62,707 nucleotides of DNA from a virus (taxonomy: Duplodnaviria > Caudoviricetes), in the IMG/VR virus record IMGVR_UViG_3300033134_000003, positions 1-62,707 of that record, one strand, 5' to 3'. The notes under the pieces are model-generated. The model ran no database searches. It saw nothing but the letters and a program-made list of their open reading frames with translations, and was not told the DNA's origin. Made by a program: the position numbers and the translations under genes. Position 1 is the stretch's first letter, and the number at the start of each line of letters is the position of its first letter. This document shows positions 8,670 through 40,572 of this stretch, piece by piece.

Positions 8670-8706
8670 GGGCGCCTCTCCTTTCAGTTCGTCCGCCGAA
8701 AAAACA

Positions 8707-9045
8707 TCATCGAGCCTCGCCCGGCGGGACACCGCCATTGCCAACGAACCCGTGCCACCCGCAACCGCCCTTCAGCCACACCGAGGAGCTCCCCGCGTAG
8801 AGCGAAAGATCGTTGAGTCCGGTGCCTCGATGATTCCAGCGTCCGGGCCCCGGAGAGATGTGCGCCGGTACGTGCGGCTTCCAGCAAATGACGATGTGGG
8901 TCCCGACCGCGCCACCGTTTTCCGCGAAGCACTTCGGACAAAGGAACATGAGCCCGTCACAATCCTCGAAGCTCGCATCCGTGCGGAAGCTCCCGCGATC
9001 ATCCGTGAGCTTGATGAATCTCGCCTCAAGCTCGGAGAGCCTCAT
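8707..9045 (-). CDS. Conserved phage hypothetical protein (Cys/His/Trp motif)
   Basis: MFLCPKC...RW...GCGWHGFV; ATGA overlap. Confidence 0.65.
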   Translation of the reverse strand: MRLSELEARFIKLTDDRGSFRTDASFEDCDGLMFLCPKCFAENGGAVGTHIVICWKPHVPAHISPGPGRWNHRGTGLNDLSLYAGSSSVWLKGGCGWHGFVGNGGVPPGEAR

Positions 9046-13996: not shown

Positions 13997-14313
13997 GCGG
14001 CACCGTCCTTGCCACTGTCGGCTGCGGCCTTGTCGGTGGCCTTCTCATCGACGAATCCGCCGAATTTCAGGATCTCCCTGACGGTTGAGTCGAGCTTGCG
14101 GATGGACCCGAAACGCATCGTGCCCACGGATTTCGCAAGCTCGGGGTGATCCTGGGAAAGAGCCGCTGCGATGATGTCCCGGTCGGCGCCCTTGCGCAGG
14201 CCGCTCGCCGCGAGCGGCTTGAAGAGCGCCTCCTGGATCTCCTCCATCTGTCCGACCGTGAGCGGGCCAATGGTGATCGTCTTGCCGTCGACCTCGAGGG
14301 TGAGAGATTGCAC
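13957..14313 (-). CDS. Tail assembly chaperone G
   Basis: Position between the tail tube and tape measure genes; ITIGPLTVGQMEEI. Confidence 0.8.
   Translation of the reverse strand: MQSLTLEVDGKTITIGPLTVGQMEEIQEALFKPLAASGLRKGADRDIIAAALSQDHPELAKSVGTMRFGSIRKLDSTVREILKFGGFVDEKATDKAAADSGKDGAAGESNAGAPTGQP
13990..13996 (-). other. Programmed -1 frameshift slippery site GGGGGAA
   Basis: G GGG GAA near the end of chaperone G with an open -1 frame downstream; canonical location before the tape measure gene. Confidence 0.75.
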
Positions 14314-14511
14314 GTTCGATGCCTCTTTTGTTAGGGAGGGGTAAGGCGAGCCGGATTCGGCGTTCCGGCTCGCCCCGCGAGCCCGTTTGAGCGGGTCCGC
14401 GCCCCAAAAGACCTGAGATGAGGCTTCAGAGGAGTGCGAGAGGCCGGCTGCCGAGTGCCGGTGTTTTCCAATTCGAAAAATTGTTCAGCGCTGAGCGCTA
14501 ACCTCCTTGGG

Positions 14512-15381
14512 CTATGCCTGCGTCGCAAGTGCGATGAAGCCGAGCTGCTGGGACGCATTCGCGAAAAATCCGAAGTCATACTCCGGCATCGAGAAATCGG
14601 TGAGCTTGAAGCCCTCCGTCCAGCCGCCGCCCACCGCTGCGAAAAGCCGCATGTAGTAGATCGACCCATACAGCACGTTCATGTAGTCGAGCTGGAAGGT
14701 CGGGGTCTGGCCGATCAGCGGATTATTGATCGTGATGGTCTGGCCGGCTGCGTTGGTGAAGCTGTAAGAGAAGCTGATGTTCACCGAGAGCCCGGCGGTG
14801 TGGTCGGCCGAGGAAAAGGTGTACGCGCCAGCGGATTGCGTGTATTGGCCGGCGGCCGGGGTTCCAGACGGGATGAAGGTGAGCGGCTCGCCGCTCGTGT
14901 ACACGACGCCCAGATCGCTGTTGAACACGCCAGAGCTCGGAATCGTCGGGGTGATCTGGTACGGCGTTGCGGGGATCAGGGTGAGCCCGGTCTGCGTGAG
15001 ACCGTACTGCGTGCCGGTAACGACCGAGGTGCCCGTCCCGAAGAGCAGGGCATTCAAGGCCTGCCCCGAGAGGGTCGCCGCCTTGATCTTCCCGGTGCAC
15101 TTGGCCGTGCCGCGCGCGACCACGAGCGGAAGCTGGTTCTGCCCGTAGAGCTCCTTCAGGTCGAACTTGATGTCAGTCGAGAACTCGTTGACATAGCCCA
15201 CGTTGGTAGGCGTTGCGTTCGCGATGTCGGTGCGGGTGAGGTAGAGAATGCCGGGGCCAAAGAGAGCCTGCGGCACAGTGTTGGTGCTTCCCATAGTTAC
15301 TCCAAAAGGTCCAGAGTCAGCGGTGTAGAGGCCAGAGTCAGCTGTGATGCCACCGGAGTCAGCTGTGCCGCCTACTGGCAT
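14512..15381 (-). CDS. Major tail (tube) protein; two possible starts (15381, 15294)
   Basis: FGPG...KELYGQNQLPLVVARG...FKLTDFSMPEYDF; both ATGs have an SD. Confidence 0.85.
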   Translation of the reverse strand: MPVGGTADSGGITADSGLYTADSGPFGVTMGSTNTVPQALFGPGILYLTRTDIANATPTNVGYVNEFSTDIKFDLKELYGQNQLPLVVARGTAKCTGKIKAATLSGQALNALLFGTGTSVVTGTQYGLTQTGLTLIPATPYQITPTIPSSGVFNSDLGVVYTSGEPLTFIPSGTPAAGQYTQSAGAYTFSSADHTAGLSVNISFSYSFTNAAGQTITINNPLIGQTPTFQLDYMNVLYGSIYYMRLFAAVGGGWTEGFKLTDFSMPEYDFGFFANASQQLGFIALATQA

Positions 15382-15460
15382 TTCTTTGGGACCTCCGGTG
15401 ATCGAAGAAAACGAGAGCCACCGCCTGCGCGGCAGCTCACCAACATCGAAAGGCTTGCGC

Positions 15461-16069
15461 TTACGGCGAGCTGGACGAGCTCGACGCGCTCACCGTGTGC
15501 CACACGATCTGCGATGACACGCCCGTCGGCGCTGCAGGAGCCGCGGGGCCGCTCGGGGCGCTCGAGCTCGATGAGGACGAGGAGTTGCTGCTTGAGCTTC
15601 CGGGGACGAGCTGAGAGGTCAGCGCGGACGGAACAGAAGTTCCGATTGAGTTCGACGCGGTGACGTACCACCAATATTGAGTCCCCGGCACGAGCGGACC
15701 TGCGGTGTAGGTGCAGCACTGCACGCCCGGCGGGGATTCAGCAGCGAATGCAATGACCGCCTGCCCAGCGACCGTGCTCCAGAAGATCTGATAGGTGGGG
15801 GCGGAGGTGAGCGGGTTGCCGTTGGCATCGGTCGTGGGCGCGTTCCACGAGATGATCGCGTAGGGCGTGCCGCTGCTGCTTGAGGACGAGGAGCTGCTGG
15901 AGCTCGCTGAGCTCGACGCGCTGCTCGATACACTGCCGCTCGAGGACGATGACACGCTGCCGGAGGATGCCTGTGCAAAGGCGGGATCGCCTCCGCCCAT
16001 CATGCTGACGGCGAGTATTGCTACGGCCACCATCGCTGCGGCCAGGAACCAAGGTGCAAAGCGTTTCAT
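15461..16069 (-). CDS. Secreted Ser-rich fibronectin type III protein
   Basis: Signal peptide ending AFA|Q; ISWNAPT...YQIFW...YWWYVTASNSIG FN3 pattern; poly-Ser linkers; AAGGAG RBS. Confidence 0.75.
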   Translation of the reverse strand: MKRFAPWFLAAAMVAVAILAVSMMGGGDPAFAQASSGSVSSSSSGSVSSSASSSASSSSSSSSSSSGTPYAIISWNAPTTDANGNPLTSAPTYQIFWSTVAGQAVIAFAAESPPGVQCCTYTAGPLVPGTQYWWYVTASNSIGTSVPSALTSQLVPGSSSSNSSSSSSSSAPSGPAAPAAPTGVSSQIVWHTVSASSSSSSP

Positions 16070-16084
16070 GATCGACTCCTTTCT

Positions 16085-17201
16085 TTGGAGCTCCCCCGGC
16101 AGGAATGGGAGCGCAGTTCCAGTGCTACAATTTGCTTGTGATCCTGACTTACCGCTATCGCATCAAGACCACCTCCGGTGCAAGGCTTGCGCTCGATGCG
16201 ATGGCACGGGCTGCGAACCTCGTATGGAACTTCTGTGGCGAGACGCAAGAGGCGGCGCGGAGATGGAATAGACGGTGGCCGACCGGCTTCGATCTGATCG
16301 GGCTGACAAATGGGAGCTCGCGCGCGCTCGGCCTGCATTCCGATACGGTGCAGGCAGTATGCAAGCAGTTCGCCGTGTCCCGCGACGAAGCGGAACGCCG
16401 GCCACGCTGGCGTGGCAAGAAGTCCCTCGGATGGGTGCCCTTCCAGGCTGCTCGGGCCATTCGGCTCGACGGCGATGCCATTGTCTTCCTCAAGCGCCGT
16501 TATCGTCTCTGGCTGCACCGGCCGATAGACGGTGAGATCAAATCCGGTAGCTTCTGCGCGGATGCGCGCGGCCGCTGGTACGTGAATCTGCAGGTCGAGG
16601 TCGAGACTGATACGGCCTGCGGATCCGGCGAGGTCGGCATAGACCTGGGACTCAAAACGCTCGCCGCGATCTCGACAGGAGATAGGATCGAAAATCCGCG
16701 TCATCTGGACCGATACGCGCAAAAGCTCGCGACGGCACATCGTGCCGGCAATGCCAAGCGCGCCCGCGCGATACACGCCAAGATCGTCAACTGTCGCAGA
16801 CATTTCCTGCATGAGCGCTCGTCGCAGCTCGTGCGCGATAACCGGCGCATCGTCGTCGGCAACGTCAATGCAAGCGGCCTCGCCAGGACCAGCATGGCGA
16901 AATCCGTTCTCGATGCCAGCTGGTCGCAGTTTCGATTCCAGCTCCGCTACAAAGCCATCAGGCACGGGGCCGAGTACATTGAAGCTGATGAGCGATTCAC
17001 AACCCAAGTGTGTTCTGGCTGTGGTGCAGTCAGCGGCCCCAAAGGTATCGAACATCTTGGAGTAAGAGATTGGGTCTGTTGCGAGTGCGGTGCTTGTCAT
17101 GATCGTGATATCAACTCCGCCATCAACATCCTCGTCTCGGGCCGGAAAGTCGGCCTCCGGTTGACGGGAAACGACCGGCTTTAGCCGGTGGATAGCTTTA
17201 C
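16085..17201 (+). mobile_element. Non-autonomous IS200/IS605-family element (tnpB only)
   Basis: tnpB followed by a right-end hairpin ACCGGCTTTAGCCGGT; GCTCCC...GGGAGC hairpin upstream; no tnpA; boundaries approximate. Confidence 0.65.
16138..17184 (+). CDS. tnpB: RNA-guided endonuclease TnpB (rearranged RuvC-II)
   Basis: TYRYRIK, VGIDLGLKTLA, IVVGNV, DERFTTQVCSGC, CCEC, HDRDINSAINI. Confidence 0.92.
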   Translation: MILTYRYRIKTTSGARLALDAMARAANLVWNFCGETQEAARRWNRRWPTGFDLIGLTNGSSRALGLHSDTVQAVCKQFAVSRDEAERRPRWRGKKSLGWVPFQAARAIRLDGDAIVFLKRRYRLWLHRPIDGEIKSGSFCADARGRWYVNLQVEVETDTACGSGEVGIDLGLKTLAAISTGDRIENPRHLDRYAQKLATAHRAGNAKRARAIHAKIVNCRRHFLHERSSQLVRDNRRIVVGNVNASGLARTSMAKSVLDASWSQFRFQLRYKAIRHGAEYIEADERFTTQVCSGCGAVSGPKGIEHLGVRDWVCCECGACHDRDINSAINILVSGRKVGLRLTGNDRL

Positions 17202-19429
17202 GCTGCCTCCTGCAAGTTGTAGTGGTCATCGTTCGCCGCGCGAATCGGCTGATTGCGGCGGTCGAGCCAGGCATCCGAGAGCGAGGTGATGGGCACTACT
17301 TGCCATTCCTCCACGAGGATCGTCTGGCTGTCCGAAGGTCCTACGATCGCTGCGTATAAGATCCCGCCCACTGGGTCATATGTCATCCAGCTAATGCCGG
17401 GTGCCACAAAGCACCCACTGATAGATGCCGGGAAATTTGCATAGCCTGGGAAGTCCGCAAACGCATAAGGGCTGGCTGCGTACAGCGGGCTCGATCCCTG
17501 TTCTTGCGCCAGGAGGGTCTGCAAATCGTAGAGATTCACCTGCACGTTGTTGTAGTAGGTCGTGTCTGGCGTTACTGGTATTTCGTTAGAGGCACTGGCC
17601 CCGTTGCCGCACTGGCCACTGATCGGCCTTGCGCGTGAGGGGCCGTACTGGTGGCGGCTTATGACCGCAAGACTGCGGCTGCCAGGCACGATGAGGGCAG
17701 TACCAAACGGACCGTCGTATTCGCTTAGGAAGTTATCTCCAAGCGGCGCGATCGTGACCGCCGTGGAGCAACTCGGAGAGCACAGGAGAGGAGTGTTCGT
17801 GCAGGTCCCACTGCTGCAACCGGTGAGCGTTGCAAAGACCGTGAACGGGGAGGATGGGATTGCGGTGCTAAGCTCAGAGATCTGAGCTACCCGAGTTTCA
17901 CCGTCGCTAAAGGTGATCAGATAGGGAGTGTCAACATGCGCGGAAAAAGAATCCAGCAGGTAGGTGTCGCCTGAAGTTGGTGACGTTGCGAAGTTACACG
18001 TGATCGTCATCGTGGCCGTACTGCCCGAAGTCACGGCTGTGCTCGCCTCTACGCCGCACCCATACGCAGTGTGTGTTTCGTCGGCAAAATTCGCATAGAT
18101 CCAGTAATTCGCCCCCCAACTCTCAGGCCATCCACCGGTGGGCGCATTGAGCACAATCGAAGTGCCACTGACGCTGGCCACCGTGGAACTGGTGTTGTAG
18201 AAGCCGGTGACATTGTTTTGCGGAAACGGAGCGGAGAGAGTTACCGAGGTAGCCCCGCTTGCAGGCGCGGAGGCGAGCGTGTATGCCCCTATCGTTGGCG
18301 CGCTTGTGGGGAACGGTCCGGCAAAGGATCGGTAGGATAATTGCTCGGGGAACCCAGGCTCGCGATAGAGCCCCTGGTACGAATAGGCGAGGAACTGACT
18401 GAGTGGGACTGACGCGCCAGAAAAGCTCGCATTGGCTTGACTGAACGTCGCGAAGTTGAACCCCGGAGGTACATAGCAGCTGTCGATCGAAAGCCCAGCT
18501 CCTACCGCAACGAATGCCGTTCCGCCCAGAGTGGCCTGCCACAGACTTGGGATGGGCGCGATGGTGCCAGCGAATTGGCGATTGGATTGCGTGCTCACGC
18601 CCTGCACTGTATTGACCGTGCCCCAACTTGACGGGTTCGAGGTCAGCGGGAGCGTTACCGGCAGCAACCACCCCAATTGCTGATTACAGTTCGCGTCATA
18701 GTACGTGCCGCCCGTCAGATAGAGCGTGCTGCCGGAAACCATCGCTCCCGTAATCCTGAAACCGCTGGCGGCGCCCCAAGGGGCTGCCGGATACCATTGG
18801 TGCACAGATACCGTAGTGCTATACCCGCTGCCGGTGAGCGCAGCACCCCACGAGAAGGTGTCTCCAGTCAGCCCAGTGACTAGCTCATCCGGAGAGTTCG
18901 AACCGCTGAACTTCACGTACCAACCCGCATTCGCGGCAAATCCCGCGGGTAAGCTAGTCAGTGTCGCGCTCGTGTCCCCCGTCATCGGGGTAGAAGCCAC
19001 GCTGTAATTGCTCGGCGCCACTATCTGCGTCGAAAAGACCGGCACTTGCGTGACGGTCGCAGTTCCATTGGTGCCTGAATAATTTGGGGTCCCGGAGAGC
19101 GTGGGCAACGTGATCGTCCCCATCCCCCCGATGATGTAATTATTCGTGTCGTAAGGATCGTAAGCGTCGCTCGCGAGATACATGGTCGAACCGGATACGG
19201 TGAGAGCTCCCGCGTAGTAGTTGAACCCGGTGGAGCTTCCCTTTGGGATCGTAAACGATCCCAAGAAATTGAAAATTGAGCTCAGATCGCTGGTCTGCAC
19301 GAGCGGCAGCGACAGCGGACTGCCCGAGGCCGCCCCGCGCCCGTGGTGCGCATCAGCCTGCGGGCCGCCTGCAATGAGCAGGAGGCAGGCGAGCGCGAGG
19401 GCGGAGGCGATTCGGACGATGTATTTCAT
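17198..19429 (-). CDS. Large secreted beta-rich protein (adhesin/fibre-like)
   Basis: Start at an ATGA overlap; signal peptide ending ADA|HHGRG; Ser/Thr/Gly-rich. Confidence 0.75.
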   Translation of the reverse strand: MKYIVRIASALALACLLLIAGGPQADAHHGRGAASGSPLSLPLVQTSDLSSIFNFLGSFTIPKGSSTGFNYYAGALTVSGSTMYLASDAYDPYDTNNYIIGGMGTITLPTLSGTPNYSGTNGTATVTQVPVFSTQIVAPSNYSVASTPMTGDTSATLTSLPAGFAANAGWYVKFSGSNSPDELVTGLTGDTFSWGAALTGSGYSTTVSVHQWYPAAPWGAASGFRITGAMVSGSTLYLTGGTYYDANCNQQLGWLLPVTLPLTSNPSSWGTVNTVQGVSTQSNRQFAGTIAPIPSLWQATLGGTAFVAVGAGLSIDSCYVPPGFNFATFSQANASFSGASVPLSQFLAYSYQGLYREPGFPEQLSYRSFAGPFPTSAPTIGAYTLASAPASGATSVTLSAPFPQNNVTGFYNTSSTVASVSGTSIVLNAPTGGWPESWGANYWIYANFADETHTAYGCGVEASTAVTSGSTATMTITCNFATSPTSGDTYLLDSFSAHVDTPYLITFSDGETRVAQISELSTAIPSSPFTVFATLTGCSSGTCTNTPLLCSPSCSTAVTIAPLGDNFLSEYDGPFGTALIVPGSRSLAVISRHQYGPSRARPISGQCGNGASASNEIPVTPDTTYYNNVQVNLYDLQTLLAQEQGSSPLYAASPYAFADFPGYANFPASISGCFVAPGISWMTYDPVGGILYAAIVGPSDSQTILVEEWQVVPITSLSDAWLDRRNQPIRAANDDHYNLQEAA

Positions 19430-21663
19430 GGCAGCGTGCACGTGGGCATCTTGCCCTGCTGGAAGCAGTACATGGCGGGTAGCGTGTAGGTGTTCCCTGT
19501 GGTGGGGTCCACCCACGGCCAGGTCTGGCCCTGGAAGAATGCAGGGGCGGAGGCGAGGTAGAAGGAGCTGGGGAGCGTGACGCCGCTGCATCCGAGGTCC
19601 GTTGTCCCTCCCGTCCCGTAGCAGTGCTCGGCGCTCGTGTTCCAGTCCCAGTTCGCCGTGCGGGTCTGGGTATTGACCGTGCAGTTGTCGAACGTCCAGT
19701 TGCCGCCGGTCTGCGATCCCTCGCTGGCGCAGTCCGAGAACGTGAAGCTGCCGCTGGTGTTGACGCTTGCCTGGTAGGCGCCGAGCTGCCAGACGGGGAC
19801 CTTATTGCCGGTCGCGAGTCCGTTGTACTGCGTCTCCGTCGTGACCTGCAATACCCACGCCGTCTGCGCCCCCTCGTCGCACCCTGAGGGCTCGGTGAGC
19901 AACTGCTGCCCGCTCATCCCCAGCACATTCCCGACGATGTTATGGTTGAAGCTGTAGGCCTGGATGTCGACCGCCGCGCGGGCGCCTCCCACGTAGTCGC
20001 CGTAGTCGTGCGTGCAGTCGCTCGTGTAGGTGTAGGTGTTGAGGGGCGCATGCGCCGCGCGGTGCGCGGTCAGCCAGTTACGGAAGGCAGTGATGAAAAT
20101 GCTATTGCCCCAGTACGTGTCCCCCTTGTAGTTCTGGCTGTAGTTTCCCTCCAACAGCTCGAGGTGCGATGTGGTGAGATGCGCGGCGTTGATCCCAGCC
20201 TCGGGGCTGTCCGGGTACGTCTCGCCGAAAGCGTCGTCGGTATAGTTGTAGGCGAACACGTTGCCGCCTCCCGCCGCGCGCATCACCACCACTTTGTTGC
20301 CGTACCAAGAGATGTTGTTCTCGATCAGGTCCTCCGCCGACCCGCCGTCGATCGCGATCTGGTAGCCGGCGCCTCCCGGGCTCGGGTTGTCCGTCTCGTG
20401 GATGAACGAGTCGCGCAGCACGTTGCGGAAGGTGCCGGCGAGCTCGATGCTGGGGTTGTTGGTCCAGGTGGACTCCACATTCTTCACCCAGCAGTACGCG
20501 CACTGCCCGATGGAGATGTTGCCCGCGCCGCCCCACGTGAAGAGGTTCTCGATGCCCACGCCCTTGATCCACGGGTTGGGGTAGGTGGTGAGCTTGGCCG
20601 AGTAGGCGGTGTGGTACGGGTAGGTGATCGGTGTGTCGAAGGTGACGGTATCACCACTCACCGAGGCCACTTCCATCACATCGGCAAGGCTCGAATCCAC
20701 AACGCGCATGCCGTAGCCGATCTCGTTGTACGAGCCCCCAAATGACGGTCCCCAGACGACGTTAGGATCGCTCGTTGTAAGTTCGTCGAGCCACACAATG
20801 CTGCCGGGCGACAACCCGCTGGGCGCACTCGTAAGCGTGATGCTGTAGGCTCCCTGCACGGCATCCGAGGCGAGCGTATAGGACGTGTTCCACTCGTTGT
20901 CGCCCGAGGTGTAAACGTGGATTGGCACGTCGGCCTCGTCCGTCGCGCGGTCCGACTTGATGATCTGCGTGGCCGTGCTGTCGGTGCAGAAGCTGCCGTC
21001 GCCGTACGTGGTGAGCGTGCCGCTGGCGCAGCTGCGCGCCGTGCCGCCGCCGCCCACCTTGTTGAGGCCGGTGCTGAGCTGCTGCCCGGGGCCGGAGCCG
21101 CGCAGCGTGCAGCCTGAGTTCGTGATCGTGATACCGCCGCCCGAGACGTGATAGACGCCGGTATTGAGCAGCACCACTTCGCCATTCGGACAATTTGAGA
21201 GCGCGGTCGTGATTGCGGACGTATCGTCCCCACCGCTCGGAGACAGCGTCGTGTAGATTGTCGTGCGATTGGGGATGCCCGCAGCCGTCATCGTCTCGCT
21301 CGAGATCGCGACTGATGGAGCAGGGGAAACAGTGTACGTCCCGGTGCCACCACTGCCACTGCCAAAGGCGGTTATTGTGGTACCGCTCGGCACCCCAGTA
21401 CCGCTTAGTACCTCGCTGGGGCCCAACGCGTTGGATGGCGAATAGGTGACCGTCATCGTGCCGCTGGTTGCGATTGAAGCCGTGAGCGGCATGGCGTTCA
21501 TGCCGGCGACTTTCCAGTTGGCCCAGCCGTCTGAAGCTGCTGCGATGAGCCCCGAGGTAGGATCGGCATTCGCACTGGCCGCCGCGCCTCGGCCGTGATG
21601 CGCAATGACAGCGGCGGGCAGCAACACACCGCACAGCAGGAGGACGAGTGCTCTCAAACGCAT
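19426..21663 (-). CDS. Secreted pectate-lyase-like right-handed beta-helix protein (tailspike/depolymerase-like)
   Basis: Signal peptide ending VIA|HHGRG; GGDDTSAITTAL...VVLLNTGVY...TLRGSG beta-helix cap; repeated IENN-type rungs. Confidence 0.75.
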   Translation of the reverse strand: MRLRALVLLLCGVLLPAAVIAHHGRGAAASANADPTSGLIAAASDGWANWKVAGMNAMPLTASIATSGTMTVTYSPSNALGPSEVLSGTGVPSGTTITAFGSGSGGTGTYTVSPAPSVAISSETMTAAGIPNRTTIYTTLSPSGGDDTSAITTALSNCPNGEVVLLNTGVYHVSGGGITITNSGCTLRGSGPGQQLSTGLNKVGGGGTARSCASGTLTTYGDGSFCTDSTATQIIKSDRATDEADVPIHVYTSGDNEWNTSYTLASDAVQGAYSITLTSAPSGLSPGSIVWLDELTTSDPNVVWGPSFGGSYNEIGYGMRVVDSSLADVMEVASVSGDTVTFDTPITYPYHTAYSAKLTTYPNPWIKGVGIENLFTWGGAGNISIGQCAYCWVKNVESTWTNNPSIELAGTFRNVLRDSFIHETDNPSPGGAGYQIAIDGGSAEDLIENNISWYGNKVVVMRAAGGGNVFAYNYTDDAFGETYPDSPEAGINAAHLTTSHLELLEGNYSQNYKGDTYWGNSIFITAFRNWLTAHRAAHAPLNTYTYTSDCTHDYGDYVGGARAAVDIQAYSFNHNIVGNVLGMSGQQLLTEPSGCDEGAQTAWVLQVTTETQYNGLATGNKVPVWQLGAYQASVNTSGSFTFSDCASEGSQTGGNWTFDNCTVNTQTRTANWDWNTSAEHCYGTGGTTDLGCSGVTLPSSFYLASAPAFFQGQTWPWVDPTTGNTYTLPAMYCFQQGKMPTCTLP

Positions 21664-23492
21664 CAGTGAAACGCCGCCGCAAGGCCACCGCAGGTTGTGC
21701 CGGTACCGGCGATTGTCCACGTCCAGCTCTGCGCGGTGGTACTCGAATAATTGTAGAACGCATGAGCATCGCCAAAGGCCAGGTGCTCACCGTCGCTTTG
21801 CCCTGTGAACTGGGGTACCGCGTAGACGAGTCCGGAGGGTGCTGTGGCGCCATTGGCCGGACCGTTCCCAACGCCTACCATTGCAAGAGTCAATCCGGGC
21901 GCGGAAGACGGCGTTATGCTCGGGTCCGCTGCGATTGACCCTGTAGAGCAACTCAGAGCGGCATCCGCCTCGTTGAGATACGATGACGATGATGCATTGA
22001 TTACGTCGTAGAACTTGCCGGCCGTATTGGCGAGCGCCGTGCCGCTGTGCAGCGGAAATGTGATCGTGCAATTCGAGCACGGGCTGCAATTTTGCGCGTA
22101 ATAGACGTAGGTGCCGGTGTTGGCGCCGGTCACCTGGGTGAAGTTACACCCGTCTGAGCTGGTCACCGTGCCGTTCGCGGTATCCCAGGACCCGTTACCG
22201 TTCACGGCTTCAAACATGAAGACGCGCAGATTGCCGAGCGAGGAAAATGGAATCGAAAACGACGATGGCAGGTTCGGGCTACCGAAATTGTCAGTCGTCA
22301 ACTGCTGCGTCTGGACCACATGGATGCTGGTCGGATAGGCGATCCCAGCGGCCCCGATCTGAAGGGCCACTGTTAACGAATTGAATGGATCGCCGTTGCC
22401 GCTAGAACAAGTCTCCCCGGCCATCGTGACCGATGCTGAGACAGCGGCGGCCGTCAGCTGAGTTTCCGTCTGCATGACGCTCTGGAAGCCATAGCCATCG
22501 CCGTTGATCCAGTCGGAGGTGTTGCCGCCGAAGCGCTCGAAGCCGCTTGCGGGCGTGTAGCCGCTTGCGTTGCACGCAGGGGAATTTGTCCCCGTCGCAA
22601 GCGCCGTGTAGTTGTAGATTAGGTTCCCGTTCGAGTTGCTAGTCGGAGTGAAGCTCGTCGGAGTCACCGTGCCCGCGGTACTCGCGAGTCCCGCCTGGCA
22701 ATTGTGTCCCTGCGCGGTGGCTGAGGCGATGTTGTTGTACTCGGTAAGAACGTAATTGAATTCCGTGAATGACGCACTGAAGGCGATCTTGAACCAGGTA
22801 ACGCCAGCTGTCGGCGCAATCACGTAAAGGTAGCTCAGCCCATTCGTTGAGCCGTTGTCAGCGGAGCATACTGCGGCCGGGATCGTATCGCTTGCGCTGT
22901 CGGTAATGCTGGAGACCGTATCCCCGCTCACGCCAGTGAATGCCAGCACAACTATGTCGCCCGAGCCGGTCGGCTGCACATTGAGCTGGTAGTTATTGCC
23001 AGCCGGCTGGCCGCTGCCGGCAGAACTGGTGGCCGTATCCCAATGCTGCACAATCTCCGGGGCGTCATTGAGTACGCACGTGATGGTGATTGCCTGGGTG
23101 TAGGGAGAACCATAGGCGTACTGGTCAGTGGCGACCACGTTGATGTTGTTTATGACCGTTGTGCTGGAGCAGGTCGGTGTTGAGCCGTTTGTGGTAATGA
23201 CGCCAGTGGATGAGTTGATCGTAAACTCGCCGGCGTTACTTCCAGACAGTGCATAAGTGCCCGAGAACGCCGCGGTACTGGTGCCCGTCACTAGACCAGC
23301 CGCGGTCCCAACAACGGTCCCTGAGGATGATCCCGTGACGTAGTCATACGAAGTCGGCGCCACGCTCACGAGGTTCAGCACGTTCTGCGCGGTGTACGGT
23401 CTCCCCAGCGGAATCGGCATCAACTGCGCGAGATGCGCCCAGGCGATTCCAGCGGCAGCAAGAGCAATGAGCAGGGGAGCAAGGCGTTTCAT
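21663..23492 (-). CDS. Secreted protein with a cadherin-like domain
   Basis: Signal peptide ending AWA|H; GTVVGT...FTINSSTGVITT cadherin-like pattern; TGATG coupling. Confidence 0.7.
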   Translation of the reverse strand: MKRLAPLLIALAAAGIAWAHLAQLMPIPLGRPYTAQNVLNLVSVAPTSYDYVTGSSSGTVVGTAAGLVTGTSTAAFSGTYALSGSNAGEFTINSSTGVITTNGSTPTCSSTTVINNINVVATDQYAYGSPYTQAITITCVLNDAPEIVQHWDTATSSAGSGQPAGNNYQLNVQPTGSGDIVVLAFTGVSGDTVSSITDSASDTIPAAVCSADNGSTNGLSYLYVIAPTAGVTWFKIAFSASFTEFNYVLTEYNNIASATAQGHNCQAGLASTAGTVTPTSFTPTSNSNGNLIYNYTALATGTNSPACNASGYTPASGFERFGGNTSDWINGDGYGFQSVMQTETQLTAAAVSASVTMAGETCSSGNGDPFNSLTVALQIGAAGIAYPTSIHVVQTQQLTTDNFGSPNLPSSFSIPFSSLGNLRVFMFEAVNGNGSWDTANGTVTSSDGCNFTQVTGANTGTYVYYAQNCSPCSNCTITFPLHSGTALANTAGKFYDVINASSSSYLNEADAALSCSTGSIAADPSITPSSAPGLTLAMVGVGNGPANGATAPSGLVYAVPQFTGQSDGEHLAFGDAHAFYNYSSTTAQSWTWTIAGTGTTCGGLAAAFH

Positions 23493-26400
23493 CAGCGAGC
23501 CTCCTGCGCTGAGATCACTACGTTCGCAAGGGCGACGCTGGAGGCGGTGGTGACCGCTTCCGCAGCGAGATCTACATAGTAGGCAGTCCCCACAGTGAGG
23601 CCCGAAACATTGCAGGTGATCGAGAACGGTCTATTTGGGCCATCACCCGAGGTCACGGCAGCGCCGTTTCTATACTCCTGCGTGCCTCCACAGGTCGTCC
23701 CGAGCGTCGTGCTCCCGTTGGCGTTGCCGTTGCCGGTGCCATACATGATGTAGTACTCAACCCCGGCTGTTGCGGCAGTACAGGTCCCGGTACCGCAAGC
23801 GGTGCTACCACTCACCGTAATCGTCATGTTGCCCGTGGTAGTCGGCGTGAACCGCGTTACGCCACTTGAAAGACCCTGAGCGGAAAATGCGCTGGTGCTG
23901 GAAGGAGCAGAGGGATTCTGCGCGCTAGTGCTCGCAAGGAACGCTCCGTTCACCGGCCCATAGCACACCATCGTCGGCGTGGTCGTGATGACTTCACAAT
24001 TCACCAGTGTGACGGCATTCGCACCAGTGTTGAGCGATGGCGCACTACCTGCGGCCCAGGAATAGCCAGCGCCCCAGGAGACGGTGTATGGGCCGCCCGA
24101 GGAGGGCTGCGAGATCGCAAGCGTGAAGGATTCGCCTGCGATCGAGCCCGTGGGATTGGCGATAGTATCGCCGCTCCCCAGGGTCAGCGTGAACTGATTG
24201 GAGCTCGAGGCGCCCGAGAGGTTCGGCGTGAAGTTGCTTGAGACTGCGGTGAGCGCGATCGGCGTAGTCGTAAAGCCGAGCGGTACAGAACTCGCGTTCG
24301 CAACGTCCGTGCCGGAATTGGTATAGAGCAGCGTGTTAGCGGTGCCCCCCGACACTGCATTGCCGATCGTGACGCCGCCGCCCCCGCCGCTGCTCGAGTT
24401 CACCGTCTGCGAGCAATCAATCGTGGTGCCGTTTGACACCATGCTCCAGGTATCTCCCGAGGGGATGCCCGTGCCGCTCGCGCACCCGCCCCCGGAGTTC
24501 ACGGTCGGCGTCGTGGACACCGCCATCGTCGAGGCCGAGTAGTTGACGACGCGCAGCGCCATGTTCGCCGCGAAGATGGAGGAGCTGATCGCTGGAATGG
24601 TCAGCGTGCCGCCGCCCGACACGTTGGCCACGATCTGGCCGCCCATGTCCGTTGATGCGACCGTGGGGGAGGAGGTGACGGTGCGCTCGGGGACGAGCGC
24701 TGAGCCAGCTACGAGGCTTGCCGCGGTCCCTGAGCAGTTCGTGCAGGTGAGCGAACTTGGCGTGCCGCCAGCGCCCCCGTACACCACGGGCGCGCCTGCA
24801 CTGCCTATGTTGTCGCCCAGCGCGGCGGCAACGCCGGTCCCAGGCACCGTGGTGGCGAGCACGCTGAAGGAGGTCCCGTTGGTCGCGGTGACCTTCAGTA
24901 CGCCTGCGCTCGTGAGGGAGCCGTCACCTGAGAGGGTCTGCGGCGCGTAGGCGGTACCCCCGGAATTGCCCACTGGTATTTGCGCGGATGAGGGGACCGT
25001 GCTCGAGCCGGTGCCGCCCTGGCCGGCAGATAGCGCCGTGGTGAGTCCTGTGAGCGAGGTAATGCTGCTGTTCGCGCCCGCTGTGACGACATTCGTCCCG
25101 CCGACCTCAAGGCCGGTGCAATTCCAGTTCGTCGTTCCGGTTGCGACCGTGCAGACCGACGTGCCGTTCTTGTTGAAGAAGCTGAGGTCGTTGGTCGATC
25201 CTTCGCCGATGAAGGCAAGGCCCCCGGTCGTGGAGAGCAGGTAGATATCGCCCTCGCCTGCTGCCCCGAGCGTCGGCGTGCTGGTCTCACCTGCAACCCC
25301 TAGAGTTCCTGCTGCTTGGAGTGGCAAAGAGGTAGCCGTGTGCGCAACGCTTCCCGAGAAGACCGAGGCGCCGCTAAAGGTATTGTTCGTGTTGAGAAGA
25401 CCGAGTGTGGCGCCGGAGGTGCCGATGATCGAATACGTGAGAAGGCCGCCCGTGCCGTTGACAGCGTCGCCGAGTGCGGTGACGACGCCCGTCCCGGGGG
25501 TGATGCTCGTGCCCCAGGCGCTTCCGGTGGACTGCGGGATGCCCGCGCCGGGATAGACCATCCCGCCGCTTGCGGTGCTGACGGTCTGGTTGCAATCGAT
25601 CGTGGTGCCGTTTGAGATGAGCTCCCAGGTCGCACCCGCCGGGATCCCGGTCCCCGTGACGCAACCGCCGCCTGAGTTGACCGTCGGGGTGCTCGAGACC
25701 GTCTCCGTCGAGGTCGAATAATTGATGACGGTGAGGGTGGTGTTGGCCGGGAAGACCGACGAGCTGATCGCAGGGATCGTGAGCGTGCCGCCCCCTGAGA
25801 CGTTCGACACGATGACCCCGCCCATGTCGGTCGAAGCAACGGTCGGGGAGGAAGTCGCCGTACGCTGCGGCGCTGTCGTGTTGAGCGTGTTGCTCGCGAG
25901 CGCAAGGGTCTGGCCGATCGCCGCACACCCCATCGTCGTGCCGGTCGAGTTGTCGATGAGGCACGGGGCGGTCGCTCCGGAGACCGTCGTGGTACCGGGC
26001 GTGATCGAGGATGCGCTCGCGGACGGAGTCGCGCAATTGTTGCTGCCGGATGAGAGCCCCTGTGAAAACTGCCCCCCGGTGCACAATGCTGGATAGCTTG
26101 CAAGATTCGTCGCGGTCGCGGCGTTGCCACCGATGTTGAGGCTGCTCGCCGTACCGCTGAGACCGGTTCCGATCCCGCTGATGACGCCCTGGTAGGTGAC
26201 AGAGAAGACCGAAGCGCCACCGTTCACGTGCATGTCAAAGAAGTTGCCGAGGAAACTCGAAGGAGCATTGCAGCCGAACTCGGTCCCGTTGGTGCTCCAG
26301 GTGGATGGAGCAGTGCCGTCATTGCAGTAGAGCAAAGGCACGGTGGTGGTCCCGGTGCCGCCTGCAAATGGCGCCCCCGTCCACGATTGCGCGGGGGTGC

Positions 26401-27793
26401 TGGCAGCACCTGAGGAGGTCACTCCAAGTGTGGTGAAAGCACCCGCGGCCGGTGTAGTCGTACCGATGGGCGGCGGGGTCAAAAGGTAATTTGAAAAGGC
26501 GGTGCCCGAAAGAGCCCCGCTAGCGCTCAGATTGCTAAATGCTCCGGTGGAGGGAGCAGTGCTCCCGATGGGGCCGGGCGAAGCAAATGTGGCGCCATTC
26601 AACGAGGATGCATTGAGGTTCGCAACGTTCGTGGTCGAGGACACCACGAAAGGTGGCGTGCCGGTGTTGACCGTCGAGGTGAACTGTCCCGTAGCGGACA
26701 GCGTCGTGAATGCGCCGGCCGCAGGGGTCGTGGCGCCGATCGCAGGCGGTGTCGCATAGTTCTGCGTCGCGAAGGTGCCAAGCCCGCTGATCTGCGTGCT
26801 GGGGAATGTCGGGAACGCGGCCGCCGGATAGGAGGACATCGCGTGGTACCCGGCCGCCCCGCTCGAGGAGCCGGTGTTCCCCCACACCCCGTATCCGACG
26901 CCGGTGTTGGCGAGCGTGACCGTCACCCCGCCCGTCGAGCCAGAATTGCTGATGAGCGAACCATCGCCGGTGAAGGAGCTCACCCCGCCCCCGCCTGCCG
27001 TCGCGTTCAGCGTTCCGCTCGTGATGCTGAGATTCGTGCCGAGCGTGAGGCATGACCCGGTCGTGCCCGTCGATGCGTAGTAGATCAGCTGGTCCACCGT
27101 GCAGCTGGGAAGAGACCCGCCACCGCCGCTTGCGTTGATGGTCTGGTTCGGCCAGGTGCCCGAGATCGTGACGTTCGTGCCGGCAACCAGACTCGCGCCG
27201 GTCACCGCGCTCCCGAGGTTGGCCGCCGAGGGGGTCGCGAGGAAGGTCGCAACGCCGGTGCCAAAGCCCGTGATAGACCCCAGAGGGAGCCCCGTCGCAC
27301 TCGCGAGCGATCCGGAGTAGCTGCCAGAGAGGGTGAGCTGGATGTTGCCGCTCGAGGGGTTGATGAAGCCGATCGTGAGGCCGTCGGTCGCTGCGGAATT
27401 CTCGAAGTTGATCGTCGTGCTGCTGTCGAGGAGCGTACCGTTGACCTGAAAGATTGCCCCGCCGGGGCAGGTCACGGTCGTCGGTGGATCTGCAAGGCTG
27501 ATCGCCCAGTTGAGGCAGTACGTACCAAGGGCTCCGGGCAGGATGCTCGCCGGCGCGCCCCCGTTGGTCCCATACATGAGACCGTTGATGTTGAAGAGCT
27601 CCCCGAGATCATTGTTGATGAATCCGAAGGCCTGCCAGAGCGGGTAGCCCGTCCCGGTATTCGCAGGGCCGCTCGAGAAATTGCAGTTCGCCGAGGTGCT
27701 GCACTTGATCGGATGCTGCTGAGCGTGCGCGGGGGAGAGGTGCAGCAGGGCCGCGAGGCCCGCGAGGAGCAGGCCCTTACGAAGAGTTCGCAT
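23492..27793 (-). CDS. Very large secreted fibre-like protein (about 1433 aa)
   Basis: AAGGAG RBS; signal peptide ending AHA|Q; gp9-like N-terminal motif; IGxTTPAAGAFT repeats; internal domain duplication. Confidence 0.8.
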   Translation of the reverse strand: MRTLRKGLLLAGLAALLHLSPAHAQQHPIKCSTSANCNFSSGPANTGTGYPLWQAFGFINNDLGELFNINGLMYGTNGGAPASILPGALGTYCLNWAISLADPPTTVTCPGGAIFQVNGTLLDSSTTINFENSAATDGLTIGFINPSSGNIQLTLSGSYSGSLASATGLPLGSITGFGTGVATFLATPSAANLGSAVTGASLVAGTNVTISGTWPNQTINASGGGGSLPSCTVDQLIYYASTGTTGSCLTLGTNLSITSGTLNATAGGGGVSSFTGDGSLISNSGSTGGVTVTLANTGVGYGVWGNTGSSSGAAGYHAMSSYPAAAFPTFPSTQISGLGTFATQNYATPPAIGATTPAAGAFTTLSATGQFTSTVNTGTPPFVVSSTTNVANLNASSLNGATFASPGPIGSTAPSTGAFSNLSASGALSGTAFSNYLLTPPPIGTTTPAAGAFTTLGVTSSGAASTPAQSWTGAPFAGGTGTTTVPLLYCNDGTAPSTWSTNGTEFGCNAPSSFLGNFFDMHVNGGASVFSVTYQGVISGIGTGLSGTASSLNIGGNAATATNLASYPALCTGGQFSQGLSSGSNNCATPSASASSITPGTTTVSGATAPCLIDNSTGTTMGCAAIGQTLALASNTLNTTAPQRTATSSPTVASTDMGGVIVSNVSGGGTLTIPAISSSVFPANTTLTVINYSTSTETVSSTPTVNSGGGCVTGTGIPAGATWELISNGTTIDCNQTVSTASGGMVYPGAGIPQSTGSAWGTSITPGTGVVTALGDAVNGTGGLLTYSIIGTSGATLGLLNTNNTFSGASVFSGSVAHTATSLPLQAAGTLGVAGETSTPTLGAAGEGDIYLLSTTGGLAFIGEGSTNDLSFFNKNGTSVCTVATGTTNWNCTGLEVGGTNVVTAGANSSITSLTGLTTALSAGQGGTGSSTVPSSAQIPVGNSGGTAYAPQTLSGDGSLTSAGVLKVTATNGTSFSVLATTVPGTGVAAALGDNIGSAGAPVVYGGAGGTPSSLTCTNCSGTAASLVAGSALVPERTVTSSPTVASTDMGGQIVANVSGGGTLTIPAISSSIFAANMALRVVNYSASTMAVSTTPTVNSGGGCASGTGIPSGDTWSMVSNGTTIDCSQTVNSSSGGGGGVTIGNAVSGGTANTLLYTNSGTDVANASSVPLGFTTTPIALTAVSSNFTPNLSGASSSNQFTLTLGSGDTIANPTGSIAGESFTLAISQPSSGGPYTVSWGAGYSWAAGSAPSLNTGANAVTLVNCEVITTTPTMVCYGPVNGAFLASTSAQNPSAPSSTSAFSAQGLSSGVTRFTPTTTGNMTITVSGSTACGTGTCTAATAGVEYYIMYGTGNGNANGSTTLGTTCGGTQEYRNGAAVTSGDGPNRPFSITCNVSGLTVGTAYYVDLAAEAVTTASSVALANVVISAQEAR

Positions 27794-27804
27794 TGATGCT
27801 CCTT

Positions 27805-28470
27805 CTACGGAACGGTGATCTCTACCGGCACGACCGCGATCGCCTGCGAGTCGATGTCGCCGGTCAGCTTGTCCAGGCGCCCGGCGATGCGGCACCAGAA
27901 GACGAGCCCCCCGAGGGTGAAGCGCTGCTGCATAGGGTCATCCGGGGCGAAGGCCGCCTGCAGCGCATCGAGAATGTTGTTGAGCAGGCTTTCTGGCACC
28001 GCGTCCGGGTCGGAGCCAGCGTTCGCGTAGACCCACACTTCGGCGCGGATCGTCTGCGCTTGCTGGATGATGTTCTGGTACTCGAGATCCTCGTCCATGC
28101 CCCGGAGGAAGAGGGCCGGCTGCGCGGCAACATCACTCCAGAATTTGATCCTGCGGCCGGTGGTCTGGAATCCGGTCGTGAGGGCGACCGCGGTCCCGGA
28201 CGCAAGAGCAGGCTCGGTCAATGTGACCGTTCCGCCCACCGTATCGATCGCCTCGATGTAGCACTCCCGCTGCATGCCAGGCCCGAAGACCGGGAGGCCC
28301 AGGAAGAGCCCGGCGAGGCTTGAGACGTTCGTGAGGACTTCGGAGTTGGCCTCGGTGGTTGCCGTGAAGGACACCTGCAGGGCTCCGACCAGCGTCGAAA
28401 ATAGCGCCTGCATGACGCTCTCTCGCGATGGTCTACCCACTTGTCCCCACTCCTGCCCACTTCGGCCCAT
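27805..28470 (-). CDS. Tail terminator/completion protein with an inserted domain (start may be GTG 28440)
   Basis: RRIKFWSDVAAQPALFL, TLGGLVFWCRIAG, QAIAVVPVEI; neck position. Confidence 0.7.
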   Translation of the reverse strand: MGRSGQEWGQVGRPSRESVMQALFSTLVGALQVSFTATTEANSEVLTNVSSLAGLFLGLPVFGPGMQRECYIEAIDTVGGTVTLTEPALASGTAVALTTGFQTTGRRIKFWSDVAAQPALFLRGMDEDLEYQNIIQQAQTIRAEVWVYANAGSDPDAVPESLLNNILDALQAAFAPDDPMQQRFTLGGLVFWCRIAGRLDKLTGDIDSQAIAVVPVEITVP

Positions 28471-28971
28471 TCATGCGACATCGCCCCCCTGCGCGGCCGC
28501 CTGGGCGATCGCCTCCTCGAGTTGCGCCCGGATCTCCGGTTCCATTTGAGCGAATGGCCCGCGCAGGTACTCAAACGCCGCGATATGCACGGGCTTGGTG
28601 AGCCTTGCGAGAACGCGCCGGCGTTGACCGCCGAGGCGCGCAAGGGCGCCGGCGCGCTCGAAGATCTTGCGCGCCTTGTTGGAACCGTATTCGAGCGTCG
28701 CAGCTTTCGCGTATTCGCCGGCGATCCCTGGGGCGAACACGGCCACGTACCCCGCAACGCGCTCGGGGTTGTCCGTGAAGGTGCGCCCGCGGATCTCGCT
28801 CCTCAAGCGTCCAGTCCGGACCGGAGCTGCGACCTCGACGCGCCCCTCGAGCTCCTCGGTGATCTGATCGATGCGTGCAGCGAGTTGCCGGCGCGCAAAG
28901 GCCGGGAAGCGATCGAACCTCGCCTCGAGCTCGCGGTCCCCGTCGAGCCGCACGGACATGATCGGCATCAT
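28471..28971 (-). CDS. HK97 gp10-like tail component
   Basis: APVRTGRLRSEI, LEYGS, YLRGPF. Confidence 0.75.
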   Translation of the reverse strand: MMPIMSVRLDGDRELEARFDRFPAFARRQLAARIDQITEELEGRVEVAAPVRTGRLRSEIRGRTFTDNPERVAGYVAVFAPGIAGEYAKAATLEYGSNKARKIFERAGALARLGGQRRRVLARLTKPVHIAAFEYLRGPFAQMEPEIRAQLEEAIAQAAAQGGDVA

Positions 28972-29900
28972 GCGGAGGCGACCACCGGCACGCGATAGCG
29001 ATCGAGCACATCGAGAATCTCATTCGGGTACGGTCCGCGTTGACCCGGCGCCGCGCCCACCCAGAACCGCTCGAGCCCGACCTGGCCGGACTGGCTTCTC
29101 TCGACGATCTTCGGATCGCGCCCCTTCGACTTGAAACGCCCGACGAGGATCTGCTCGCACACCCTCTGGAGGTCAAGGGGCATGTTCGGCGTGTCATCGT
29201 TCGGGAGCTGGTAGCCGGCCTGGTAGATGACCGTGACTTGCACCGCGGCCCAGGTCCTGGGATTACCGGCCTCATTCAGGCGATAGAGCATTCCCGGGCC
29301 CTCATCCCCCGGAAGAAGTGATCCCGCCTGCACCTCAAAGCCCGAGCCTGCCGCAAGGCCGATGTCGTTCCCGTCGATGGTCTCAACGACGCTGATTCCG
29401 GCCGATAGCGCAATCGCACTATTGCTCTCGGTCGCGGCCTCGGAGATCGTGATCGAGCCTGAACCCAGGCCCGTGATGGTGGCGCCACTCGGGATGCCAG
29501 GTCCGGAGAAGAGCTGATCGACCGCGAGGCCCTGAAGACTTGCGATGCCGTCGACGAGCTGCTCGCCCTCGTAGGTGTTGCCGATGATCTCCACGACGGG
29601 CCCCTGAAACGGCCACCTCGTGAGCTTCAGCGGGTTGAGCGCTGAGCGCACGCCCTCGCCCCATACCCCGCGCTGCGGGCGATACACGTCCTGCCAAGTG
29701 GCAAGGCCGAACACGCGATTGCAGTAGCGCGCGATCCCCGCCGACTCCTCGTTCAGCATACGAGTGAGGGTCGCATCGTTACTCGTGTCGCTTGAGTTGA
29801 GGCCGAGCTCGTCCTTGATGTTGGCGAGCGTCGTGAGCGTATAGGACGCAGGAGGCTCGAGCAGCTGCGTGATGACGTAGCTTGCCGTCTGGCTCTGCAC
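28968..29900 (-). CDS. Head-tail connector (gp6-like) with an inserted domain
   Basis: LTTLANIKDELG, IARYCNRVF, YQAGY, LDRYR. Confidence 0.75.
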   Translation of the reverse strand: MQSQTASYVITQLLEPPASYTLTTLANIKDELGLNSSDTSNDATLTRMLNEESAGIARYCNRVFGLATWQDVYRPQRGVWGEGVRSALNPLKLTRWPFQGPVVEIIGNTYEGEQLVDGIASLQGLAVDQLFSGPGIPSGATITGLGSGSITISEAATESNSAIALSAGISVVETIDGNDIGLAAGSGFEVQAGSLLPGDEGPGMLYRLNEAGNPRTWAAVQVTVIYQAGYQLPNDDTPNMPLDLQRVCEQILVGRFKSKGRDPKIVERSQSGQVGLERFWVGAAPGQRGPYPNEILDVLDRYRVPVVASA

Positions 29901-36818: not shown

Positions 36819-36979
36819 CAGGCCGCCCGGGCGCTCAGAAACGCGCCAGCGAGCAGCAGGGCCCCTCCGATGAGGAACCCGGCTGGTGGGTATATTCTCC
36901 AGGCGCCGTAAGAGATCAGAGCGGCGCCGGCGAGGCCGGCTAGGTCGCGTGCGAGCTCGGGCAGCGGAAATTTTCTCAG
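36818..36979 (-). CDS. Small membrane protein between terminase and portal (CTG start)
   Basis: RDLAGLAGAALISYGAWRIYPPAGFLIGGALLL; AAGGAG 8 nt before CTG; TGATG coupling to portal. Confidence 0.7.
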   Translation of the reverse strand: MRKFPLPELARDLAGLAGAALISYGAWRIYPPAGFLIGGALLLAGAFLSARAA

Positions 36980-36992
36980 GCTCGCCGCTCCT

Positions 36993-40550: not shown

Positions 40551-40572
40551 CCACCCACACGGAGACACGACC

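Follow-up and report, generated by a model that had tools for sequence, protein, structure and literature searches.

A block of five predicted Sec-exported fiber- and enzyme-like proteins within the virion operon of a lambda-like siphovirus

The virion parts of tailed phages are normally built in the cytoplasm. Neither the neck and collar fibers formed by T4 fibritin nor the Ig-like extensions of major tail proteins bear signal peptides, and both are assembled there. Phage-encoded exported proteins are already known, among them endolysins, exclusion lipoproteins and morons; the lambdoid morons lom and bor are genes for exported proteins that lie in the tail-gene region, come with a separate promoter and terminator, and are expressed in the lysogen. 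Here we describe a stretch of viral DNA of 62,707 bp (IMG/VR record IMGVR_UViG_3300033134_000003, analyzed in its entirety and referred to as the window; ~64% G+C, rated complete by CheckV). Its virion operon contains a ~12-kb cassette of five minus-strand open reading frames (ORFs), P1 to P5, between a neck- or terminator-like gene (term221) and a tail-tube-like gene (tube289). All five encoded proteins begin with a predicted signal peptide. Our preferred explanation, to which we assign a probability of roughly 0.45, is that they represent a late-expressed, Sec-exported and disulfide-folded set of adhesins and glycan enzymes that would be active outside the cytoplasm.

Like lom and bor, the P1-P5 cassette consists of accessory and patchily distributed genes for predicted exported proteins among virion genes, but it brings neither promoter nor terminator and is translationally tied to the late operon. 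With neck and collar fibers and tube decorations it shares a position beside the neck/terminator gene and before the tube gene, and one related locus (L025) encodes a tube protein with two Ig-like domains at its N-terminus. The mosaic adhesive trimer (MAT) proteins of Bdellovibrio bacteriovorus are presented, in the cited part of PMC10769870, as surface fibers with signal peptides and a kinship to phage fibers. The architecture of P1 is similar: a signal peptide, a conserved N-terminal domain, a mosaic fiber of ~1000 amino acids (aa) in MAT that is akin to phage tail fibers, and swappable C-terminal tips. MAT fibers work outside the cytoplasm as adhesins and their genes are chromosomal in the predator, whereas P1 is encoded in a phage virion operon. 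The likeness is one of architecture, and neither P1 nor its profile has a sequence match to any solved chain, any deposited MAT tips included. For P3, the comparable protein is WceF of Pantoea stewartii, a Tat-exported, tailspike-like exopolysaccharide enzyme (cited part of PMC7949094). Both have an export signal and would be beta-helix proteins of tailspike type directed at surface glycan outside the cytoplasm, the beta-helix of P3 being suggested by weak profile matches. WceF, however, is encoded by bacteria within a gene cluster for exopolysaccharide synthesis and has a Tat signal, whereas P3 is phage-borne and has a Sec-like signal. The Sec-exported endolysin Lys44 of phage fOg44 and the signal-arrest-release (SAR) endolysins, covered together with free phage depolymerases in the cited part of a review (PMC6116005), are late phage products that, by way of the host Sec system, arrive at the envelope before lysis, as is proposed here for the cassette proteins. 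Those endolysins are small and encoded in a lysis cassette, in contrast to the five large fiber- or adhesin-like proteins encoded beside the neck and tube genes, which have no endolysin domain. Phages of Porphyromonas gingivalis also encode signal-peptide proteins of unknown function (cited part of PMC10367356). In open-access text, we did not find a multi-gene block of large, signal-bearing, Cys-paired fiber or enzyme proteins translationally coupled into a virion operon.

Signal peptides were called by our own heuristic for hydrophobicity and charge together with a reading of the sequences. On this basis, all five cassette proteins have the layout expected for Sec export and signal peptidase I, with a charged n-region, an h-region of ~10-15 residues and an AxA-type site. 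Their maximum 10-residue Kyte-Doolittle values are 2.7-3.3, the n-regions have a charge of +2 or +3 without an acidic residue, and the predicted cleavage sites, from P1 to P5, are AHA↓Q, AWA↓H, VIA↓H, ADA↓H and AFA↓Q. The 19 other proteins of the structural operon lack such N-termini (their values reach at most 2.0). Virion fibers are expected to have no export signal, and each of the five proteins departs from that expectation. Signal-peptide-like N-termini are found in 28 of 35 homologs of P1, in all 11 homologs of P4 and in at least 9 of 13 homologs of P2, and about half of 29 sampled relatives of P3 have Sec-, Tat- or lipoprotein-type signals, the others having none. The predicted export signals are therefore a trait of the protein families. 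An earlier note on this DNA, made from the letters alone, had proposed signal peptides with these same five cleavage sites and had counted about 26 cysteines in about 13 local pairs in P1. The sites are borne out by the heuristic, and the count for P1 is exactly 26 Cys, arranged as 13 sequential pairs with a spacing of 3-26 residues.

The cysteines of P1 track its predicted export. A Cys pair in a duplicated domain of the fiber is invariant in 11 of 11 aligned rows. Signal-bearing homologs of P1 have a mean Cys content of 1.47%, versus 0-0.48% in the four full-length homologs with no signal. The conservation of the signals within the families and the Cys-poor nature of the signal-free P1 homologs both support the export and oxidative folding that the earlier note had suggested. 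The residue just after the predicted cleavage site is Gln in 17 of the 28 signal-bearing P1 homologs by a strict rule, and in 25 of the 28 by eye. A "Q rule" has been described for Bacteroidetes (cited part of PMC10367356), and the Gln may either hint at the host or serve as a pyroglutamate cap. Where cleavage is predicted, P3 and P4, which are otherwise unrelated, have the same octapeptide, AHHGRGAA; the two coding sequences differ there at four synonymous positions. Arg/Gly motifs (RRGRG and similar) are found at the cleavage position of P4 homologs, and a 741-aa protein of another viral contig (L047) likewise has an Arg/Gly-rich motif at this position.

In P1, the signal peptide (AHA↓QQ) is followed by a conserved N-terminal domain with cysteines, then by a mosaic fiber in which a ~100-aa domain is duplicated (residues ~640-745 and ~1033-1132), and finally by a C-terminal tip domain of ~140 aa. 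The 35 homologs are also mosaic, each spanning 5-28% of P1 with 31-77% identity. Of those for which no signal was called, three are truncated at the N-terminus and the remaining four are full length with ordinary fiber N-termini. The domain following the signal recurs in P0035, P0045, P0047, P0048, P0054, P0060 and P0064, and modules of P1 are also shared with P0056 and P0059. The protein P0226, encoded on a 64.6-kb contig, consists of a signal peptide and the P1 tip domain (45% identity, E 2e-23) fused to the core of P2, and it follows that the neighboring P1 and P2 genes draw on a common domain pool. Sequence searches of Pfam, PHROGs and the PDB gave no match to P1, nor did the P1 profile against PDB chains. 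By tblastn, neither P1 nor P3 had a match in 50,697 cultured-phage records, although the low-complexity filter may hide Ser/Thr/Gly-rich parts. A scan for the P1 domain with a single sequence found nothing, whereas an alignment-based scan found four loci. The domain was not found in 401 Acidobacteriota genomes or in two metagenome-assembled genomes (MAGs) that encode P4 relatives.

The other four proteins are diverse. P2 has a signal peptide, a weakly cadherin-like N-terminal part (E 0.026) and a Cys-rich core of ~470 aa, for which there are 14 homologs, often placed behind He_PIG, Ig or CHB_HEX_C domains and behind signal or lipoprotein signals. Nothing usable was found for P2, P4 or their profiles in the PDB by sequence, and nothing above cut-off in Pfam or PHROGs; the ESM Atlas gave no match for P2 and only weak leads for P4 (scores of at most 0.80, TM 0.53 to one cluster). 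The fold of the P2 core and of P4 is unrecognizable from sequence. The signal peptide of P3 is followed by HHGRGAA, a ~70-aa N-terminal module also found in tail fibers (phrog_21413, residues 59-130) and a large domain of a putative pectate-lyase-like, beta-helix-type family with 2995 family representatives at E≤1e-3. P3 alone has no Pfam match. Among 30 relatives, two match PF12708 and one matches PF13229, and the P3 profile aligns with mannuronan C5-epimerase at E 8.6e-6 across 63 positions, so that the family carries weak beta-helix, epimerase and lyase profile signals. P4 also has HHGRGAA after its signal peptide and belongs to a rare secreted family: only 11 homologs were present among 5.8 billion clusters, all of them signal-peptide-like, and the family was not found in IMG/VR. 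It occurs in two MAGs, on an Acidobacteria contig and in a Bdellovibrionales MAG, where it lies among ordinary, non-phage chromosomal genes. P4 ends in a tail of ~13 residues (…AANDDHYNLQEAA; window 17198-17240, minus strand), which we take to resemble an SsrA-type degradation tag; no tmRNA gene was found in the window. The homolog P0005 has a similar C-terminal tail, on which ground truncation of P4 by the neighboring insertion sequence was rejected, and 7 of the 11 homologs stop ~30 residues earlier. P5 combines a signal peptide (AFA↓Q) with linkers rich in serine (29% Ser) and matches FN3 weakly. The resemblances to cadherin, tailspike beta-helix and FN3 domains seen in the earlier note are thus present, but those to FN3 (E 7.7e-4, 20.1 bits against a cut-off of 25) and cadherin are sub-threshold, and that of P3 to a beta-helix emerges only via family profiles. 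The families of P2, P3 and P4 look like mainly bacterial secreted proteins.

The cassette is tightly integrated into the operon (Table 1). The term221 stop codon is followed by AAGGAG and, after 7 nt, by the ATG of P1, leaving a gap of 11 nt between the genes. Start and stop codons overlap at P1/P2 (TGATG), P2/P3 (TGATG) and P3/P4 (ATGA), and P5 is preceded by an AAGGAG ribosome-binding site of its own. The sizes given for the five ORFs in the earlier note are exact, and the translational coupling of the four large ones was correctly read there; what that note had missed is a plus-strand gene, located between P4 and P5 in antisense orientation to the late operon, that encodes a TnpB (OrfB) protein of an IS200/IS605-type insertion sequence (PF07282, E 1.2e-20, 73.8 bits, cut-off 26.3; PF01385, E 2.5e-14, 54 bits, cut-off 30.5; phrog_506, transposase, E 1.1e-66). 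The TnpB region has no omega-RNA-like Rfam match at the gathering threshold. The G+C content at third codon positions (GC3) is 0.79 for P1, 0.71 for P2, 0.85 for P3, 0.69 for P4 and 0.78 for P5, compared with 0.80-0.87 for the flanking genes; with a value of 0.70, TnpB resembles P2 and P4. In an independent assembly (Logan contigs) of run X1, a wetland metagenome that is probably the source sample, both cassette borders are spanned with 0 differences and an even depth of 14-20. Because both borders are bridged in this way, the window at the cassette is no assembly chimera.

On the coding strand of positions 14000-29000 we found no sigma-70-like promoter, and the other strand has one site versus 2.6 expected by chance. 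The absence of a promoter-like site belonging to the cassette and the tight translational coupling to the upstream neck gene lead us to infer that the cassette is transcribed together with the late virion genes. This agrees with the late expression assumed in the earlier note, which had named expression from an own lysogenic promoter as evidence that would speak against its model. A GC-rich hairpin of 10 pairs followed by a U-run lies between P5 and tube289. Since a comparable hairpin is present in the terminator-tube spacer of the cassette-free relatives L004, L005 and L006, the hairpin is ancestral, and the cassette sits upstream of it in one unit with the low-copy neck genes. The hairpin was accordingly rejected as a moron terminator, and the cassette has neither the promoter nor the terminator that a moron would bring with it.

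Table 1. Positions in the window of the cassette, its flanking genes and associated features.
Feature	Coordinates	Strand	Length	Description
term221	27805-28470	-		phrog_8150 (function unknown), E 1.2e-16; neck- or tail-terminator-like, directly upstream of the cassette
P1	23492-27793	-	1433 aa	
P2	21663-23492	-	609 aa	
P3	19426-21663	-	745 aa	
AHHGRGAA octapeptide of P3	~21588-21611	-		
P4	17198-19429	-	743 aa	
AHHGRGAA octapeptide of P4	~19339-19362	-		
TnpB (OrfB), IS200/IS605-type	16105-17184	+	359 aa	between P4 and P5, antisense to the late operon
P5	15461-16069	-	202 aa	
Hairpin and U-run	15415-15438	-	10 pairs	GC-rich; between P5 and the tube gene
tube289 N-terminal extension	15295-15381	-	29 codons	in frame; three TADSG heptads at residues 6, 13 and 20
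tube289	14512-15381	-	289 aa	phrog_8234 (function unknown), E 2.3e-49; tail-tube-like

Upstream of the cassette, the minus-strand operon encodes, in order, the large terminase, portal, protease/scaffold, major capsid protein, adaptor, Neck1/tail-completion protein and term221 (221 aa), which thus comes after the Neck1/tail-completion and adaptor genes. P1-P5 are followed by tube289, chaperone-sized ORFs, the tape measure and lambda-like tip proteins up to a J-like protein of 1197 aa. Identities in the operon were assigned from Pfam and PHROGs matches, and the names terminator and tube are names by position. The earlier note placed the cassette between the right neighbors, but its "tail terminator" and "tail tube" are such positional identities, phrog_8150 and phrog_8234 both being annotated as of unknown function.

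A scan with tube289 yielded 29 related viral loci, several of them near-duplicates. In 25 of these, a term221 homolog ends 19-341 nt before the tube alignment, i.e., the flanking genes are adjacent and there is no block. Two of the other four (L028 and L030) give no upstream view, and in the last two, signal-peptide proteins are encoded immediately before the tube gene: one of 312 aa in L002, and two of 363 and 430 aa in L025. The 312-aa protein was considered as a P2 relative and rejected (hhalign E 0.11, not significant). Signal-bearing products are rare among the 29 loci, being predicted for just 6 of the 244 ORFs with 150 aa or more. A further locus outside this set, L049, encodes a signal-bearing P1-like fiber directly after its term221 homolog, with identities to the window of 73% for TerL and 56% for term221. 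The survey of related phages suggested in the earlier note thus finds signal proteins at the same junction in L002, L025 and L049 and none in 25 of the 29 loci. In the tube tree, the cargo-bearing L002 is sister to the cargo-free L003 with support of 100/98, and the window is on a separate branch, which argues that cargo is gained, lost or exchanged quickly at this junction. The adjacency of the flanking genes in 25 of 29 loci, the L002/L003 pair, the deviant GC3 of P2 and P4 and the tolerance of an insertion sequence within the cassette all point to accessory status. Sequence comparison thus indicates that the cassette is an accessory insertion recombined into the neck/terminator-tube spacer of a lambda-like siphovirus, and that this spacer is a hot spot for such insertions.

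The tube gene itself has an unusual beginning, an in-frame N-terminal extension with TADSG heptads (Table 1). Both the extension and the canonical start at Met30 are preceded by a ribosome-binding site, and two tube isoforms are therefore likely. An extension with three TADSG-type heptads is also found in L002 (1237-1326). Its Thr-Ala repeat codons show synonymous differences from those of the window, which indicates that the extension is translated. In L025, the extension (8650-9276) comprises TFDG-type repeats and the two Ig-like domains. Independently of the cassette, a heptad of the form hydrophobic-Thr-Ala-Asp-x-Thr-x, in three or more repeats, is widespread in phage proteins (at least 81 matches in 80 contigs, L053-L132), often at the extreme C-terminus of small ORFs or at N-termini. 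The idea that TAD-repeat extensions are specific to cargo-bearing phages was therefore rejected.

Signal-bearing fibers are not confined to this lineage. G001 is a complete, podovirus-like genome of 60.5 kb with terminal repeats that encodes five consecutive signal-bearing proteins (685, 134, 748, 842 and 761 aa), whose genes are flanked by those for a tail protein and the endolysin; the 761-aa protein is 50% identical to P3, and Gln follows the predicted cleavage site in all five. Downstream of its lysis genes (36220-41551) there are at least six more small signal- or lipoprotein-like ORFs. The complete 68-kb genome G002 encodes a fiber with a lipoprotein signal and P1 modules, together with a 741-aa signal protein that has a CHB_HEX_C domain. 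Further signal-bearing fibers are encoded by L046/L047, L048 and L052, and Gln follows the predicted site in most signal proteins of these other phages. The theme thus recurs across several phage types, in nine viral contigs or more (the window, G001, G002, L002, L025, L046/L047, L048, L049 and L052), and signal-bearing, Cys-paired fiber proteins appear to be an unrecognized class of phage cargo in wetland and soil viromes.

In the explanation that we prefer, P1-P5 would pass in unfolded form through the Sec translocon of the host late in infection, their signals would be cleaved, mostly exposing Gln or His, and they would fold in the periplasm with oxidation of the paired cysteines. P1 would be a long mosaic fiber with a distal binding tip, P3 a beta-helix glycan-active enzyme, and P2, P4 and P5 adhesin- or enzyme-like secreted proteins. 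The site of action would be the host envelope or exopolysaccharide, where surface glycans would be bound or cut, either on the still-intact infected cell or by soluble factors freed at lysis. Progeny might thereby leave the matrix, avoid being trapped on debris or reach neighboring cells. P1-P5 would be optional extras, unnecessary for virion building. We favor such remodeling of the surface or matrix, which the earlier note had listed as its alternative, because virions are made by close relatives that lack the block, the tail tip of this phage is complete, and three of the five families have the look of secreted bacterial proteins. Its parts also have precedents, in exported tailspike-like enzymes, exported phage lysis enzymes and signal-bearing fibers of phage kinship. 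Several points weigh against it. The middle of a virion operon, 11 nt after a neck gene and upstream of an ancestral hairpin, is an odd place for a non-structural set of genes. The signal-free P1 homolog P0056 shares modules with proteins of cultured cyanophages annotated as virion structural proteins, and the mature N-terminus of the signal-bearing P0049 aligns from residue 1 of P0056 (E 6e-4), as if a signal peptide had been placed before an otherwise ordinary fiber N-terminus, a pattern also seen in L048 and L052. The tube extension accompanies cargo in all three cases (the window, L002 and L025) and is absent from all 15 cargo-free loci. The five signal proteins of G001 occupy the usual tail-spike slot. 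Finally, the export, cleavage, enzymatic activity and fold of P1-P5 are predictions.

Most of these same observations would suit the model of the earlier note, in which the proteins are periplasm-matured virion appendages that are exported, disulfide-folded and attached to completed virions once lysis breaches the inner membrane. The late expression, export and oxidative folding in that model are supported here; its last step, the docking, is weakened, and we consider the model as a whole rather unlikely, though a serious contender. The TADSG-repeat extension on a share of the tube subunits, or else the neck, is a possible docking site. Coupling of the cassette to a neck gene, the occurrence of a second phage (L049) with a P1-like signal-bearing fiber at the same place, and the AHHGRGAA common to P3 and P4, as expected of a shared docking peptide, would fit with this model. 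For two of the observations, this octapeptide and the tube extension that goes with cargo, we see no other explanation. However, the block is absent from 25 of 29 loci, L003 included, and close relatives thus make virions without it; this phage has a full lambda-like, J-type tail tip; and the P2-P4 families look mainly bacterial and secreted. The link between cargo and tube extension weighs less because TAD heptads are common in many phage protein contexts, and it may be incidental. Post-lysis capture would have to compete with dilution, and the open-access literature yielded no tailed-phage virion protein with a cleaved Sec signal. The bolder proposal that some environmental tailed phages form a class in which part of the particle is built extracytoplasmically, with Sec-exported fibers or spikes that disulfide-fold in the periplasm and snap onto particles at lysis, here onto the TADSG extension of a long tube isoform with P3 and P4 attaching via their mature HHGRGAA, is in our estimate unlikely. 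It is improbable that the cassette is a lysogenic-conversion moron, expressed from the prophage independently of the late operon and altering the lysogen surface in adhesion, biofilm formation or phage exclusion. Such a moron would explain why the cassette is accessory and patchy among relatives, why P2 and P4 deviate in GC3 and why the products are of exported surface type, and the insertion sequence points to time spent in a bacterial genome. The coding strand nevertheless has no sigma-70-like promoter, the genes are joined to the operon by the 11-nt gap and overlapping start and stop codons, the hairpin after P5 belongs to the lineage rather than to the cassette, and no integrase was found among the 46 window ORFs, a part of the total, that were scanned against Pfam or PHROGs. 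Least probable, and very doubtful in our view, is that the hydrophobic N-termini are uncleaved membrane anchors or assembly or chaperone segments of ordinary cytoplasmic fibers. Basic residues immediately after the hydrophobic core are unfavorable for Sec export, and they are present as HHGRG in P3 and P4 and as RRGRG-like motifs in P4 homologs; signal cleavage, moreover, is a prediction from sequence. Yet all five proteins have the n-h-c layout and an AxA-type site, Gln follows the predicted site in most homologs, paired cysteines track the signal, and the homologous families have lipoprotein and Tat-type signals at the same position.

A few other features of the window lie outside the cassette. 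The large terminase (1004 aa; 36993-40007, minus strand) has a homing-endonuclease/LAGLIDADG insert (Pfam Hom_end, residues 368-440) between its ATPase segments, and this insert looks like an intein. A class-3 lipase-like protein is encoded downstream of the tail genes (1066-1836, minus strand), and two more small signal- or lipoprotein-like ORFs are found at 3792-4226 (plus strand) and 45685-46062 (minus strand). The window has no Rfam match at gathering thresholds, and ARAGORN reported nothing in it.

The products of a virion operon are assumed to be cytoplasmic, and a 12-kb block of five predicted exported, disulfide-type proteins within such an operon, including a 1433-aa fiber built from ordinary tail-fiber modules, is at odds with that assumption. 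If the docking model proves right, the finding would be categorically new, and phage assembly would have an undescribed periplasmic branch. If instead the proteins act on the host surface or matrix, they would constitute a new kind of late "exo-module" for the release and spread of progeny. Either way, the cassette would be a source of new glycan-binding and glycan-cutting domains.

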